64,000 nt of DNA. It comes from Alphaproteobacteria bacterium (GTDB lineage Bacteria; Pseudomonadota; Alphaproteobacteria; Micavibrionales; Micavibrionaceae). Shown here piece by piece: positions 31,997-60,705 of this stretch. A model generated the notes under the pieces. It made no database searches and was not told the DNA's origin. It saw nothing but the letters and a program-made list of their open reading frames with translations. The stretch is taken from positions 60,016 to 124,015 of the forward strand of contig JAGNKE010000004.1 of NCBI GenBank assembly GCA_018000295.1. Direction: 5' to 3'. The translations under genes and the position numbers were made by a program. Positions within the stretch are counted from its first letter, which is position 1. Every line of letters begins with the position of its first letter.

Positions 31997-32503
31997 ATGA
32001 AACTCAATACGCTAAAGCCGAGCGAAGGCTCAAAAAAAGTAAGAACCCGCCTCGGACGCGGTATTGGCTCCGGCAAGGGTAAAACCTCAGGGCGCGGAGT
32101 CAAGGGCCAGAAGGCCCGTACAGGCGTAGCCATAAAGGGCTTCGAGGGCGGCCAGATGCCGCTCTATCAGCGTATGCCCAAAATAGGTTTCCGTAACACT
32201 GCATTCGCAACCAAGTTGGTCGAACTGACCCTCGAAAACCTCCAGGAGGCGATTGACACCAAGAAACTAGACCCCAAAAAGCCGATTGATGAAGAAACGC
32301 TTGTTAAGGCGGGCGTGGTCAGCCGCAAGCGTGACGGGATCAAGTTGCTGGCAACCGGAACCCTGTCAGCGAAAGTTGATCTCAAACTGACCAAGGCCTC
32401 AAAAGCCGCTCAGGCTGCGGTGGAAAAGGCCGGAGGCAGCATTGAATTAGCTCCGGAAAAGCCGGCTAATCCAAAAAAATTGCCTAAAAAGGCAAAGAAG
32501 TAA
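31997..32503 (+). CDS. rplO: 50S ribosomal protein uL15
   Basis: 168 aa. The sequence [14 protein letters not shown]...[19 protein letters not shown] is typical of uL15. Confidence 0.93.
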
Positions 32504-32525
32504 CAGGCTGGGGCCACAAGAAAAC

Positions 32526-32560
32526 AAGCCCTTCCCCTAAAGGAAGGGCTTTTTCTTTTT
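32526..32560 (+). terminator. Rho-independent terminator immediately after rplO
   Basis: A 10-bp perfect stem AAGCCCTTCC / GGAAGGGCTT with a 6-nt loop, followed by TTTTCTTTTT. Confidence 0.8.
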
Positions 32561-32625
32561 GACATATTTTCCAAGCCCGATTAGTCTGTTAGCAGTATTT
32601 TCTGACCGTTAGGGGCTAAATCATT

Positions 32626-33474
32626 ATGCGTCGCTTGTTGCCACTTATTCCCTTGTGTTTACTGGTTTTCGTCATCTTTGTAGGCCAGGCGCAGGCGCAA
32701 TCCTGCCCCCGCTCCAACCCCGAAACCGAAGTAAAAAAAATAACATTAAAGACCAAATATTACCGCGGAACATCTGCTTGGTACTTAACGGCATGGACCG
32801 GTCACTGGGGCAAGGGTGTTGTCCTTGGGCTTCATACGGGTAAGGACGGAAATGCCCCTTTTTGGGCAGACTATGATGCCAAATTTGAGTTCACGCCTGT
32901 GCGCAACAACCCCAACGCGGTTTGTGTAAGTGTATCAAAAATAAAAATGAAGTTTTACATTCAGCCTGTAGTGCATATCGCATCCGAGTATCCTCAGGAA
33001 AGTTGTGAATTCAGGGAGGTTCTGAGGCATGAAAAAAAACACGTAAAGGTGACAAAGGAATGGCAGAAGGAATTCACCCCGCAGTTGCGTCGGGAGTTGA
33101 GAAGCATAGCTCATAAGATTCCGGCTTCTTCGCCAGTAGGAGAGCGCCAGATCCCGGCAACACAGCAAATGATGATGAACATAATTAAATCTCACCTGGA
33201 AAAATTTATGGAAAAAAAGGCGGTTCCTACCTTAGTTCGTCGCCAAGGAAAAGTTGATGACCCCTTGGAATATAAGTTGGTGCCGGAACGTTGCGAAAAC
33301 TGGCAAGATTACCATATTACAGCCTATGAGCCAGGGTATGAAAAAGATGACTCCGATGATAAGGGGGAGGGAGATGATGGAGACGAAGACGATTCTTCCG
33401 ACGATGACTCAGAATCAGATAATAATGATGATACCGGTGAAATTGGTGACCTTCCGGACTACGGAGCCAACTGA
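32626..33474 (+). CDS. Secreted HExxH protein, putative Zn-metallopeptidase (DUF922/COG5661-like), with a poly-acidic tail
   Basis: 282 aa. The signal peptide ends QAQA. The motif VLRHEKKHV (HExxH) follows a conserved Cys. It is clearly paralogous to the next ORF, and its C-terminal 47 aa are D/E/S-rich. Confidence 0.5.
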   Translation: MRRLLPLIPLCLLVFVIFVGQAQAQSCPRSNPETEVKKITLKTKYYRGTSAWYLTAWTGHWGKGVVLGLHTGKDGNAPFWADYDAKFEFTPVRNNPNAVCVSVSKIKMKFYIQPVVHIASEYPQESCEFREVLRHEKKHVKVTKEWQKEFTPQLRRELRSIAHKIPASSPVGERQIPATQQMMMNIIKSHLEKFMEKKAVPTLVRRQGKVDDPLEYKLVPERCENWQDYHITAYEPGYEKDDSDDKGEGDDGDEDDSSDDDSESDNNDDTGEIGDLPDYGAN

Positions 33475-33491
33475 TTCTTGTCTTTCCTTAA

Positions 33492-34217
33492 ATGCCCAGA
33501 AGTTTTTATAAAACAGTTAGTGCTATAAAAAGAACAGGTGTATTTCTTGTTTACGTACTTCTGATGTCAACATCAGCTAATGCTGGCGAGTTAGTTGACA
33601 AATGTCCTGTTTCACGCCCCGAGACGTTTCTAAAATCAAGGATTGCCGGTGCAGAGGTAACAAAAACAAAATCCGCCGTCGATATGACGGAATGGCAGCT
33701 TGGCCACAGCATGGCTCCAAGTGGTGGTCAGATTCTGGGGTTGGGTGGCGGGGAAATTGAAACTAGCTACAATGCGGAATTCGAAGTCTCTCCCTTCCAG
33801 ACCGGGTATTGCGTAGTTCTTCATGAAATCCGAGCGAAATTCATTGCAAAACCTCAAATACACGTTGCCAGCAATTTCGAGGAGGGGAGTTGCGAATACA
33901 GCGAGGTTCTCTTCCACGAGCAAAAGCACATAGAGGCACTTCGCCTTTTTCACCGAAAGCAGACTAAAAATCTAAGGGCAAAGCTGAGAGAAGTGTCAAA
34001 AGCAATCCCCGCTGTTAAGCCAGTCCCGCAAGAGGAGGTAAAGCGGATACAGAAAAAGCTTCTCCAGTATGTTCAGGTAGAGATGAATGGCTATTTTCAG
34101 GAAATTCTGAAAGAACTTCAGCAAACCCAGCAAAAAATCGACAGTCCCGAGGAATATCAGCGCGTGGCTAAAAAATGCCGGAAATGGGAACAAAAACTCT
34201 CGAAACAGCCGGATTGA
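33492..34217 (+). CDS. Secreted HExxH protein, paralogue of 32626..33474
   Basis: 241 aa with a signal peptide ending ANAGE. It shares these blocks with the upstream ORF: CP.S.PET, A.FE..P, SCE..EVL.HE.KH, IPA..PV and D.P.EY..V...C..W. Confidence 0.5.
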   Translation: MPRSFYKTVSAIKRTGVFLVYVLLMSTSANAGELVDKCPVSRPETFLKSRIAGAEVTKTKSAVDMTEWQLGHSMAPSGGQILGLGGGEIETSYNAEFEVSPFQTGYCVVLHEIRAKFIAKPQIHVASNFEEGSCEYSEVLFHEQKHIEALRLFHRKQTKNLRAKLREVSKAIPAVKPVPQEEVKRIQKKLLQYVQVEMNGYFQEILKELQQTQQKIDSPEEYQRVAKKCRKWEQKLSKQPD

Positions 34218-34323
34218 ACGCAAAGACTCTTAGCGGACAACCGCGAATCCGCTCTTGTGTCCCGGGAATCTTTTCATTATGACTGATTGACTGTTTTTTA
34301 AGAACCAAGAAAGAGAATAAGCG

Positions 34324-35679
34324 ATGGCATCGGCCGCTGAGCAACTCGCACGCAACGCCAACTGGGGCGCACTGGCAAAAGCCACGGAGCTAAAAAAGCG
34401 GATATATTTTGTCCTCGGTGCCCTTCTGGTGTACCGATTAGGAACCTATATTCCCGTTCCGGGGATCGATATCCGGGTCTGGGAGGAGATTTTCTCGCAA
34501 AAGGGCGGCGGAATTCTGGACATGTTCAATATGTTCTCCGGCGGTGCCTTGCAGCGGATGACGATCTTTGCTCTTAACATCATGCCCTATATCTCGGCCT
34601 CGATTATCATGCAGTTGGCCTCCTCGCTCTTCAAAGGCCTTGAAGAATTGAAAAAGGAAGGTGAACTGGGCCGGATGAAGATTAACCAGTACACGCGATA
34701 CTTGACGGTTCTTTTGGCCACCGTTCAGGCTTATGGCTTGGCGGTGGGTCTGGAATCGATGCAGGGACAGGCCGGCTCGGCTGTGCTCGACCCTGGGATG
34801 TTTTTCCGTATCTCCACAGTCATTACGATCGTCGGTGGCACGGTCTTCCTGATGTGGCTGGGCGAACAGATTACCCAGCGAGGAGTAGGGAATGGAACAT
34901 CCCTGATAATCTTCGCTGGGATCGTTGCCGAATTGCCTCGCGCCCTCGGCAGCACTTTGGAACTGGGACGGCAGGGAACGATCAGTCCGGCCGTGCTTCT
35001 GCTCCTCGCGGTCATGGTTGTGGCCGTCATTGGCCTGATCGTCTTCATGGAGCGCGCCCAGCGCCGGATCGTGGTCCAGTACCCGAAACGCCAGGTGGGC
35101 AATCGCATGACGGGGGGAGAGACAAACCACATCCCCTTGAAACTCAATACTTCAGGCGTGATCCCCCCGATTTTCGCGTCCTCTCTGCTGCTTCTGCCCC
35201 TCACGATTATTAAATTCGCAGGGGTCAATGGCGGAGATTTCTGGGCGGATGTCGAGCGTTACCTCGCCCACGGTCAACCGATCTACATGGCCCTGTTTGG
35301 TTCGCTGATTATTTTCTTTGCTTTTTTCTATACCGCGATTGTCTTCAATCCCGAGGAAAACGCGGAGACTCTCCGCAAATACGGTGGATTTGTTCCCGGT
35401 ATGCGTCCGGGTAAGAACACCGCAGACTATTTCGATTATGTCCTGACCCGAATCACGACGGTTGGCTCTCTTTATCTGGTCTTTATCTGCCTCCTGCCGG
35501 AGTTTATGGTATCGCAATACAGCGTCCCCTTCTATTTCGGTGGAACCAGTCTGCTAATCGTGGTCAGTGTCACCATGGATACGGTCGCGCAGATTCATTC
35601 GCATCTGATCGCCCATCAGTACGAGGGGCTGATTAAAAAGGCGAAGCTAGGGAATCGCGGCGGTGGACGCCGTAGGTAG
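34324..35679 (+). CDS. secY: Preprotein translocase subunit SecY
   Basis: 451 aa, polytopic, with motifs GALQRMTIFALNIMPYISASII and GGTSLLIVV. Confidence 0.97.
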   Translation: MASAAEQLARNANWGALAKATELKKRIYFVLGALLVYRLGTYIPVPGIDIRVWEEIFSQKGGGILDMFNMFSGGALQRMTIFALNIMPYISASIIMQLASSLFKGLEELKKEGELGRMKINQYTRYLTVLLATVQAYGLAVGLESMQGQAGSAVLDPGMFFRISTVITIVGGTVFLMWLGEQITQRGVGNGTSLIIFAGIVAELPRALGSTLELGRQGTISPAVLLLLAVMVVAVIGLIVFMERAQRRIVVQYPKRQVGNRMTGGETNHIPLKLNTSGVIPPIFASSLLLLPLTIIKFAGVNGGDFWADVERYLAHGQPIYMALFGSLIIFFAFFYTAIVFNPEENAETLRKYGGFVPGMRPGKNTADYFDYVLTRITTVGSLYLVFICLLPEFMVSQYSVPFYFGGTSLLIVVSVTMDTVAQIHSHLIAHQYEGLIKKAKLGNRGGGRRR

Positions 35680-35718: not shown

Positions 35719-36309
35719 ATGAACATCATCATTTTCGGACCGCCCGGAGCAGGAAAAGGTACACAAGCCGCCAGAATCCAGACCGAGCACGGTCTCAAGC
35801 ATCTCTCGACGGGCGATATGCTGCGCGGCGAGGTCGCCCGGAAATCCGACCTCGGCCTCAAGCTCAAATCGATCATGGACGCTGGCCAGCTCGTCTCCGA
35901 CGATATCATGATCGAACTGATCGGCAACTGCGTCAGCGAACCTGACTGCGAAAAGGGCTTTATCCTTGATGGCTTCCCCCGCACGGTTCCGCAGGCGCAG
36001 GCGCTCGATGATACTCTACGCCATATGGCCCGTAAGGTGGATCATGTACTGGTGCTCGAAGTGGACGAAAAGGCCCTCCTTGACCGTATCCGCAACCGCG
36101 CCAAGGAAACCGGCGGAGCCCGCAGTGACGATAATGAAGAAGTTCTCAAAAAGCGCCTCAGCGAATACCGCGCCAAAACAGCCCCCGTCCTGCCCTATTA
36201 CGAGCAGAAAGGTCTATTGCGTAAAATCGACGGCATGAAGCCGATTGAGGAAGTCACCGCACGCATCGAAAATTTTCTGGGATCTTCCCTTTCAAAAAAG
36301 CACGCTTGA
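35719..36309 (+). CDS. adk: Adenylate kinase (short-lid form)
   Basis: 196 aa with the P-loop GPPGAGKGTQ, the motif LSTGDMLR, and no Cys4 lid. Confidence 0.96.
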   Translation: MNIIIFGPPGAGKGTQAARIQTEHGLKHLSTGDMLRGEVARKSDLGLKLKSIMDAGQLVSDDIMIELIGNCVSEPDCEKGFILDGFPRTVPQAQALDDTLRHMARKVDHVLVLEVDEKALLDRIRNRAKETGGARSDDNEEVLKKRLSEYRAKTAPVLPYYEQKGLLRKIDGMKPIEEVTARIENFLGSSLSKKHA

Positions 36310-36321
36310 TATGAGCCGGAG

Positions 36322-37209
36322 ATGAGTGACAATTTCGTTCTTGCCGTTCACGGCGGAGCCTTTATGAATCCTCGCGATTATTCGCAGCAAACAAACTTCA
36401 TCGAAAATTGTCTCAAATCTGGCTGGCGTGACCTGAAGGGCGGTCAATCGGCCCTCGAAGCCGTGGTCCAGGCGGTTGTCAAAATGGAAGACTCTGCCCT
36501 CTTCATCGCCGGAAAGGGCGCCGGCCCGAACTCCGAAGGCGACTATGAACTGGACGCCTCGCTGATGGAAGGCGAATCGGGAAAAGCCGGGGCTATAGCC
36601 GCCGTTCGGGGAATAAAAAACCCGATCATCGCGGCCCGCACAGTCATGGAGAAAACGCCTCACGTCCTGCTGGCGGGTCTGGGGGCGGAGCGTTTTCTGT
36701 CCGAACAGGGTTTGGAGCAGGTCAAAGACCCCGCGCACTATTTCACACCCTCCCATACGGAAAATCAGGTCATACCGCCCACGGCTCTAAGCTCCAGCCA
36801 TGGCACAGTGGGTGCGGTCGCTCTGGATCGGGACGGCAACCTCGCCGCCGCAACATCAACGGGTGGACTGGTGGGCAAGAGGGCGGGCCGGGTCGGGGAT
36901 TCGCCGATCATCGGTGCGGCAACGTGGGCGGATCGCAACCTCGCGGTATCCACCACGGGATACGGTGAATATTTTATGCGCGCCGTGGCAGCCTACGATG
37001 TCCTGGCCCGCTGTCTCTATGGAGGTAAAGCGCTCGAAGTGAGCGTTTCGGATGTATTGGACGGCATCAGAGACGCCGGAGGGTGGGGCGGACTGATCGC
37101 TCTGAACCGTAAGGGGGAAGTTTGTCTGGATTACCGCTGCGCCGGAATGCACCGCGGTTTTGTGAGGCACGATGGCGCCATTCACGCCAGAAGCCTCCCC
37201 GATATATGA
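36322..37209 (+). CDS. Isoaspartyl peptidase / L-asparaginase (Ntn hydrolase)
   Basis: 295 aa with the autoproteolysis/nucleophile motif HGTVGAVALD, plus TSTGG and GDSPIIGA. Confidence 0.85.
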   Translation: MSDNFVLAVHGGAFMNPRDYSQQTNFIENCLKSGWRDLKGGQSALEAVVQAVVKMEDSALFIAGKGAGPNSEGDYELDASLMEGESGKAGAIAAVRGIKNPIIAARTVMEKTPHVLLAGLGAERFLSEQGLEQVKDPAHYFTPSHTENQVIPPTALSSSHGTVGAVALDRDGNLAAATSTGGLVGKRAGRVGDSPIIGAATWADRNLAVSTTGYGEYFMRAVAAYDVLARCLYGGKALEVSVSDVLDGIRDAGGWGGLIALNRKGEVCLDYRCAGMHRGFVRHDGAIHARSLPDI

Positions 37210-59946: not shown

Positions 59947-60705
59947 ATGTCTAAGAAAGATAAAGCGAGTGATGCGGTGGCCTTGGCTTTGGCCGGAGTA
60001 TTAACGGTAACCTCTGTTCCGGCGGGTTCAACGGCGAATTCAATGCCCGACACCCTCAACCATCCGGCGCCCATCACCGAAATGGCCTCGATCAACCGCA
60101 GCCCGACGATGACATTGCCTCCGGGCGTTGAGCTTCCCGCCGATAGCATCAACCCCGGCCAATCCACCCAACCCGCACAGGCGCAGCCGATCAGGTATTT
60201 GGATGTCACAAAAGACACGCAGCAAGGCTGGGCGTTGGCTCAAACAACTGCTGCTTCAGCCTCCAGAAACAACAGGGTTGTCATCATATCCTATCTCGAC
60301 CCCCCGACGACCAGAGCCTTGTATGATGCGGCGGTTCCCTTTACCCAGCCGCCGACCAACCTGCCGGTTGTCGGCTTGATCCGGTCTCCCTCGGCCCCTC
60401 CAAGTGTATCGGTCACACCCAATCCTCTGGGCTTCGATGTTTTTTTTAATGGATCTGTTATACCGCCTATGGAAAAGCCAGACCCGAGGTTTACACGGAC
60501 GGATCAGCTAAGCGCCTTTATGCGCGGAATCCACAGAAACCATTTCGCCGCCGCAACAGCGTCTGTTAGTCCCGATACGCGCTTGGCCGTTAACATGGCC
60601 ACAGGCGGTAAATCCTCTGGCGGAAGCGGTTCGGCTACGGGCAGCGGCTCGGCGGGTGGCAAATCGGGCGATCTCGCCGCCGTGAACTTCAACCCGGATT
60701 TCTAG
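59947..60705 (+). CDS. Hypothetical Pro/Ser/Thr-rich exported protein with a Gly/Ser-rich C-terminus (252 aa)
   Basis: It has an N-terminal hydrophobic segment ALALAGVLTVTSVPAG, a Pro-rich body, and the C-terminal GGKSSGGSGSATGSGSAGGKSG. The RBS is AAAGGGAAG. Confidence 0.5.
   Translation: MSKKDKASDAVALALAGVLTVTSVPAGSTANSMPDTLNHPAPITEMASINRSPTMTLPPGVELPADSINPGQSTQPAQAQPIRYLDVTKDTQQGWALAQTTAASASRNNRVVIISYLDPPTTRALYDAAVPFTQPPTNLPVVGLIRSPSAPPSVSVTPNPLGFDVFFNGSVIPPMEKPDPRFTRTDQLSAFMRGIHRNHFAAATASVSPDTRLAVNMATGGKSSGGSGSATGSGSAGGKSGDLAAVNFNPDF

Follow-up and report, generated by a model that had tools for sequence, protein, structure and literature searches.

An old gene pair for predicted exported HExxH proteins between rplO and secY in a Micavibrio-like alphaproteobacterium

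In the spc operon of the Escherichia coli type, secY is co-transcribed with rplO. The gene order of that operon, rpmD-rplO ... secY-adk, is kept in the 64,000-nucleotide stretch of DNA considered here (the window: positions 60,016 to 124,015 of contig JAGNKE010000004.1, assembly GCA_018000295.1), which comes from an alphaproteobacterium of the family Micavibrionaceae. Nevertheless, there are distinct differences at the rplO-secY junction. The first is that a terminator and a promoter-like block part rplO from secY, even in relatives with nothing inserted between the two genes. The second lies in the content of the junction, which in one clade holds one or two genes for proteins with an HExxH motif and in other genomes is broken altogether. 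In the window there are two such genes, A and B. Their products invite comparison with the aspzincins, in which HExxH is combined with a downstream Asp as the third zinc ligand, in the motif GTxDxxYG. They may also be compared with the DUF922 family (PF06037; COG5661, 'predicted secreted Zn-dependent protease'), which is itself merely a predicted zincin (PMC3650047). Here, we propose that A and B probably form an old, separately promoted two-gene unit encoding exported, disulfide-bonded, metal-dependent hydrolases. The features of the locus are as follows.

31997-32503, plus strand: rplO (uL15), an open reading frame (ORF); the last gene of the upstream ribosomal-protein unit.
32526-32558, plus strand: terminator-like hairpin of rplO (32526-32551) with its T-run, from a hairpin/T-run scan, folding energy and positional conservation.
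32559-32587, plus strand: promoter-like element for A and B, TTGACA (32559-32564), 17 nt and TAGTCT (32582-32587), from conservation in relatives; putative transcription start.
32626-33474, plus strand: gene A, 282 amino acids (aa), from the ORF, family alignment, predicted structure and the ratio of nonsynonymous to synonymous substitution rates (dN/dS); signal peptide residues 1-24, core 25-229, disordered acidic tail 230-282; HEKKH at 33028-33042 and Asp211 at 33256-33258.
33492-34217, plus strand: gene B, 241 aa, from the same four kinds of evidence; signal peptide residues 1-31, HEQKH at 33915-33929, Asp217 at 34140-34142.
34254-34293, plus strand: promoter-like block before secY, from conservation in relatives; putative function.
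34324-35679, plus strand: secY, an ORF, 73-99% identical in relatives.
35719-36309, plus strand: adk, an ORF that with secY makes up the downstream unit.

A and B are paralogues (28% identity over 223 residues, E 4e-30) separated by only 17 nt with no terminator in between, and a spacer of 106 nt leads from B to secY. An initial annotation, made from the letters of the sequence, had described two paralogous genes with signal peptides, shared Cys positions and HExxH motifs between rplO and secY, and all of these features are present at the places given for them. Read directly, the N-terminus of A consists of MRR, a hydrophobic core and a cleavage site between AQA and QSC, and that of B of a hydrophobic core and a cleavage site between ANA and GE. 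Both have the form of Sec-type signal peptides for signal peptidase I rather than of lipoprotein signals, which would predict export of the two proteins; by heuristics, a signal-peptide-like N-terminus is usual across the family and a lipobox is rare (3/127). In the alignment of 134 relatives, His135, Glu136, His139, Asp211 and Cys100 (A numbering) are invariant, while Cys27 (131/131), Cys127 (133/134), Cys223 (132/133) and Tyr216 (131/134) are nearly so and Gln207 is highly conserved (120/134). The metallopeptidase assignment had been made to depend on HExxH being retained in homologues, and the motif is retained in all 134. Asp211 is the only invariant candidate for a third metal ligand downstream of it. 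Sequence data could not make this catalytic-looking signature any stronger.

In the reading that we favour, A and B would be expressed from a promoter of their own and would occupy a space that already existed between the terminator of rplO and the promoter of secY. Each gene would give rise to a Sec-exported protein of ~200 residues after cleavage by signal peptidase I, in which the four conserved Cys residues probably form two disulfides. The HExxH motif, near the start of a 37-residue helix, and an Asp that follows ~72 residues later (211 in A and 217 in B) would most likely make up a metal (zinc) site, with the Glu of HExxH serving as the general base. The products may accordingly be pictured as periplasmic or secreted metal-dependent hydrolases, most likely peptidases. 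All spc-located copies would stem from one ancient insertion and a tandem duplication after it.

The dN/dS values against a sister species are 0.12 for A and 0.10 for B, and together with the conservation described above they show that both are functional genes under purifying selection. A pseudogene or spurious ORF is ruled out for either gene on the same grounds. Tandem duplication, also claimed in the initial annotation, is borne out by the paralogy of the two genes. Within the genus, A and B have diverged in amino-acid sequence 4-8 times as much as rplO and secY. Synonymous divergence (dS) from the sister species (L005, G002) forms a mosaic along window positions 31997-35679, with low values in rplO (0.03) and A (0.065) and higher ones in B (0.32) and secY (0.44), a pattern suggestive of recombination with a breakpoint close to where A and B meet. 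Gene A also carries a tail rich in Asp, Glu and Ser (residues 230-282, window 33313-33471), which is predicted to be disordered, with a predicted local distance difference test score (pLDDT) < 50. The tail occurs only in the A orthologues of genomes G000, G002 and G005 (280-282 aa) and is absent from those of G003, G006 and G004 (234-236 aa). The ORF of the A orthologue in G001 (258 aa) has a doubtful start, probably placed too early.

The transcription signals at the junction bear on how the pair came to lie there. The hairpin downstream of rplO, AAGCCCTTCC-CCTAAA-GGAAGGGCTT at 32526-32551, is followed by TTTCTTTTT; it has 10-11 pairs, six of them G-C, with a free energy of -24.4 kcal/mol and a z-score of -2.6. 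A hairpin and T-run stand at the same place 3' of rplO in 16 of the 18 insert-bearing genomes and 11 of the 12 insert-free ones (27/30 loci), with stem sequences that vary between genomes. The intrinsic terminator reported in the initial annotation is supported by this G+C-rich hairpin, its T-run and its conserved position, and its efficiency is presumed. An Rfam scan over the terminator gave only chance matches below threshold and no RNA family. Directly 3' of the T-run, the pair appears to have a conserved promoter-like element of its own, with a presumed promoter function: TTGAC[AT]-N17-TAnnnT is found 54-69 nt past the rplO stop codon in 12 of 18 genomes, compared with 0.9% of shuffled regions. 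In the window its -10 hexamer, TAGTCT, matches the consensus at three of six positions and was hence missed by a consensus scan.

The block before secY comprises CTTGTGT, with TATGAC (34278-34283) 17 nt after TTGTGT (34255-34260), and then TGATTGACTG. The pattern CTTG-N17-C(A/T)TTA(T/A) is found 64-77 nt upstream of the secY start in 17 of the 18 insert-bearing genomes. Insert-free spacers, which measure 60-335 nt, carry CTTG(T/C)..N17..TTTAT, and in most insert-free relatives this aligns with the secY block. We take the form CTTG-N17-C(T/A)TTAT to be closer to the promoter consensus forms of alphaproteobacteria than to that of E. coli sigma-70. There is no convincing terminator after B, and read-through from A/B into secY is for this reason likely. 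The initial annotation had held that the insert uncoupled secY from the spc operon, so that secY and adk had to rely on a promoter in 34218-34323 or on read-through. A promoter-like block does lie in that interval; however, it predates the insert, as relatives without the insert already have both the terminator and the same block, and the uncoupling is not the work of the insert. The rplO-secY junction thus appears to have been an operon boundary in this order beforehand, with a family gene settling between terminator and promoter.

The rplO gene has counterparts with 52-99% identity in 58 of the 61 related genomes, and the records of related loci are metagenome-assembled genomes (MAGs) labelled 'Micavibrio sp.' or 'Alphaproteobacteria bacterium'. 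Eighteen related genomes share the order rpmD-rplO-(one or two family genes)-secY-adk. These comprise all seven genomes of the genus, always with the pair, and eleven further genomes with one or two copies, where the lowest identities are ~65% for rplO and ~78% for secY. Four family copies are present in the 2.68-Mb genome to which the window (contig C11) belongs: A and B, C on contig C1 and D on contig C22. Maximum-likelihood analysis places all 31 spc-located copies in one clade (Shimodaira-Hasegawa-like approximate likelihood ratio test support 96), apart from a folD-linked clade of paralogue C and its order-wide orthologues, and this single clade speaks against independent insertions; the deeper branching of this tree is not resolved. 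Within the genus, the A orthologues form one clade with a support of 100 and the B orthologues another with a support of 99, the latter for six of the seven genomes, which dates the A/B duplication to the origin of the genus or earlier. For M. aeruginosavorus ARL-13, the locus numbers in its paper would leave room for one gene between L15 and secY, the putative orthologue GMV_2114 (PMC3189940).

This history bears on the scenario of the initial annotation, in which a recent protease islet of lower G+C content split secY from the spc operon and left it to read-through or to a new promoter. The lower G+C content itself holds: A and B have 46.6% and 45.6%, respectively, against 53.8% for the genome, and their G+C contents at third codon positions (GC3), 0.48 and 0.45, rank near the 4th-5th percentile among long ORFs. 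Both measures are clearly below those of the flanks and of paralogues C and D in this genome and in its closest sister, as a recent arrival would predict. However, the low values are peculiar to these two species; in the other species of the genus, the G+C content of the genes follows that of the flanks. In addition, the arrangement is common to 18 genomes across several genera, A and B are each genus-wide clades, and the terminator and secY block are already present in insert-free relatives. A recent island of low G+C content was rejected on the gene order, the tree and the G+C values of sister species, and we regard the islet scenario as a whole as very improbable.

Several other observations concern the same neighbourhood. 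In seven further relatives (L060, L063, L068, L070, L075, L076 and L079) secY is not found within 1.5 kb of rplO. A tilS-like gene follows rplO in G018, and a D-Ala-D-Ala carboxypeptidase-like gene lies downstream in G028; in this order the rplO-secY junction has been rearranged repeatedly. Downstream of adk, on the same strand, the window has a gene for a 295-aa Ntn-hydrolase resembling isoaspartyl peptidase/asparaginase (36322-37209), which is apparently missing in M. aeruginosavorus ARL-13, judged from locus numbers.

The proteins themselves were modelled with AlphaFold2. The model of A has a pLDDT of 84.5, with > 95 in the core and disorder in the tail (230-282), and that of mature B has a pLDDT of 95.6 and a predicted template modelling score of 0.88. 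Both are built from the same elements in the same order: two short strands, a short helix, a long beta-hairpin with strands of ~20 residues, and a loop ASNFxxGSC, then a 37-residue helix with HExxH two turns in, a second 37-residue helix, the Asp, and a short helix running to the last Cys. In each case the HExxH helix comes after a conserved strand and contains the whole motif (A, helix 127-164 and motif 135-139; B, helix 101-137 and motif 109-113).

The initial annotation had likened both proteins to DUF922/COG5661, and a likeness in general plan exists. DUF922 members are small exported bacterial proteins with a beta-rich N-terminal half containing conserved Cys, then the HExxH helix and a conserved acidic motif further on, and HExxH is as invariant in the DUF922 alignment as it is in the A/B relatives. 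In hhalign, the Cys-bearing strand and the HExxH helix of the two families align co-linearly. The differences lie in the C-terminal part and in the Cys. DUF922 ends in YDxxTxHGxxQGAVFP ~42 residues past the motif, whereas the A/B family ends in RQxxIDTPEEYxRVxxxC ~72 residues past it, with two 37-residue helices between, and its four-Cys pattern is unlike that of DUF922. In searches with the DUF922 hidden Markov model (HMM; gathering score 27 bits), there was no match to A or B at E <= 10 and none in the whole genome; matches below threshold occurred in 8 of 111 relatives, with a best score of 20.5 bits. Membership of DUF922 was rejected on the missing HMM match, an hhalign probability of ~7% and the absent C-terminal motif, and DUF922 would at best be a remote relative of this family. 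No solved relative of DUF922 was found among PDB sequences.

The Pfam families that recurred below threshold among the 111 members were all HExxH families, namely eCIS_core (10) and DUF922 (8), the only ones seen in more than three members, and Peptidase_M56 (2), and none of them reached its cut-off. Their recurrence amounts to a weak zincin signal. For eCIS_core/DUF4157 (PF13699) and Peptidase_M56 (PF05569) the likeness is local to the HExxH helix and always below the curated cut-offs, and the domain contexts are unrelated to those of the A/B family. The aspzincins offer another parallel, in HExxH, the invariant downstream Asp (D211) and the nearly invariant Tyr close to it (Y216). The spacing and the surrounding motif differ, however, and no sequence or structural match was found; a ligand role for the Asp is putative. 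Metzincins, with HExxHxxGxxH and a Met-turn, were rejected: the sequences HEKKHVKVTKEW and HEQKHIEALRLF lack both the Gly (+3) and the His (+6) of that motif.

A number of results weigh against metal-dependent hydrolases expressed from their own promoter, and they should be set beside the invariance of the motif. Foldseek searches with both models found no match at E < 0.3 in the PDB and none at E < 0.1 among the viral structures of BFVD, and the best E-values were 0.14-0.39 with TM-scores <= 0.2. PDB sequence searches, with single proteins and with profiles, returned only coiled-coil or helical noise. The hhalign probability for the family against DUF922 was 6.4-6.9% (E 0.005), although the DUF922 alignment, built from genomes and the protein database, is shallow and gained only three sequences when the search was widened. 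By a simple register count along the helical hairpin, Asp211 lies 2-3 turns from the His residues of HExxH, and its context, D-T/S-P-E-E, is that of a helix cap, so that the Asp could be structural instead of catalytic. On the side of expression, both promoter-like elements fit the E. coli sigma-70 consensus poorly, and a simple scan flagged neither. For the proposal that A and B are secreted zinc metallopeptidases, the outcome is mixed: exported, Cys-rich proteins with an invariant HExxH agree with it, while the match to DUF922 and a metallopeptidase-like fold are wanting. The initial annotation had called for a test for a metzincin- or gluzincin-like fold, and these confident models have no counterpart in the PDB or BFVD. 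A zincin fold for the A/B family is accordingly not demonstrated, and no resemblance to solved zincins is recognizable in the predicted structures.

A and B belong to a family that is unnamed, widespread and mostly alphaproteobacterial. Pfam and NCBIfam scans of both proteins gave no meaningful match, and the family has no model in either collection, in line with the initial description of the genes as uncharacterized. Cluster members bear uninformative names, 'hypothetical protein' or, for fusions to Sel1 repeats, 'tetratricopeptide repeat protein'. A HMMER search of 1.84 billion representatives yielded 765 clusters at 50% identity (E <= 1e-3), most of them with lengths of 210-250 aa. Of 61 genomes from the same order, 57 have the family, with 1-5 copies each; across Alphaproteobacteria it is present in 45 of 201 sampled genomes, often in tandem and also in genomes of 0.9-1.4 Mb. 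That the family is kept throughout the order, and in genomes that have been reduced, points to a basic function of the ancestral copy in the envelope. The ancestral order-wide copy stands in a conserved folD(-)/yggT(-)/X(+)/acnA(+) locus (examples are L015-L023, L041 and L082), and paralogue C (G000:C1:32700-33110; L003:1222-1953) is this folD-linked copy, with a GC3 of 0.77 compared with 0.45-0.48 for A and B. The folD/yggT/acnA neighbourhood of the ancestral paralogue gives no clue to function. Some longer members (P0115, P0116, P0129, P0146, P0147 and P0158) have N-terminal Sel1 repeats, and one (P0154) has a COQ9 domain N-terminal to the HExxH domain.

A different setting is found in five MAGs of alphaproteobacteria from gut or rumen, among them Candidatus Enterousia, where a full family member (X) lies directly 3' of virB3-virB4. 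These members keep all of the invariant residues and abut or overlap the end of virB4, and the genes that follow are variable (rml genes, dnaG/topA, sufD). The virB3-virB4-X trios are these.

L042:1043-4453, virB3-virB4-X.
L044:1131-4465, virB3-virB4-X.
L046:1245-4600, virB3-virB4-X.
L047:1083-4432, virB3-virB4-X.
L045:1-1557, virB3-virB4-X.

This arrangement suggests that, in the gut lineage, X is tied to a type IV secretion system, perhaps in an accessory role. No VirB4 is encoded in the genome of the window. Accessory cell-wall enzymes are common in type IV-like secretion clusters, and it may be asked whether the family consists of metal-dependent hydrolases that are not peptidases, for instance a peptidoglycan amidase/endopeptidase or an envelope-remodelling enzyme aiding envelope upkeep and the assembly of trans-envelope machines. 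Such an enzyme is favoured by the member after virB3-virB4, by the N-terminal Sel1 repeats of some members, and by the persistence of the family in very small genomes and almost throughout the order (57/61), a pattern that suggests envelope housekeeping. On the other hand, there is no similarity to known peptidoglycan hydrolase families in Pfam or NCBIfam, HExxH is far commoner in peptidases, and VirB4 is absent from the window's own genome; we consider this alternative unlikely.

The same position could also be read without any enzyme at all. A and B would then be elongated structural or adhesive envelope proteins, for example a minor component of the pilus or its tip akin to VirB5, and their His, Glu and Asp would hold a structural metal or a partner. 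The site right after virB4, the length of ~220 aa, the signal peptide and the long helical hairpin resemble those of VirB5/TraC-type proteins, and the lack of a zincin-like structural match would also fit. However, the Glu of HExxH is strictly invariant (134/134), which marks a catalytic site and not a structural one. Neither a VirB5/TraC Pfam match among the 111 members nor such a structure among the Foldseek matches was seen, and most family-bearing genomes, including this one, have no link to type IV secretion. A non-enzymatic role seems distinctly unlikely, and exported metal-dependent hydrolases, most likely peptidases, remain the reading that we prefer.

A broader view, which we put forward only tentatively, is that the family represents a structurally new class of HExxH metalloenzyme, in which a long beta-hairpin rests on a helical hairpin with two disulfide clamps instead of a zincin fold. 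It would be a conserved periplasmic factor of alphaproteobacteria that serves as a type IV secretion accessory in some lineages and was duplicated near secY in Micavibrio-like predators, where it evolves fast, possibly through an interface with prey or the cell surface.

The conspicuous location of A and B thus has an ordinary explanation, while their fold is possibly new. In this order, a terminator and a promoter make rplO-secY a natural boundary between operons, which would explain why foreign genes can settle at this point harmlessly. The uncharacterized family to which A and B belong comprises ~765 clusters; about a fifth of the alphaproteobacterial families sampled have it, as do almost all Micavibrio-like genomes. 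Its strict catalytic-looking signature and a confident fold with no solved counterpart make it a good target for biochemistry and structural work, and virB3-virB4-X in gut alphaproteobacteria provides an independent setting for probing function. The family has expanded in Micavibrio-like predators, to four copies in the present genome, and the fast-evolving spc copies are candidates for envelope or prey-directed functions.

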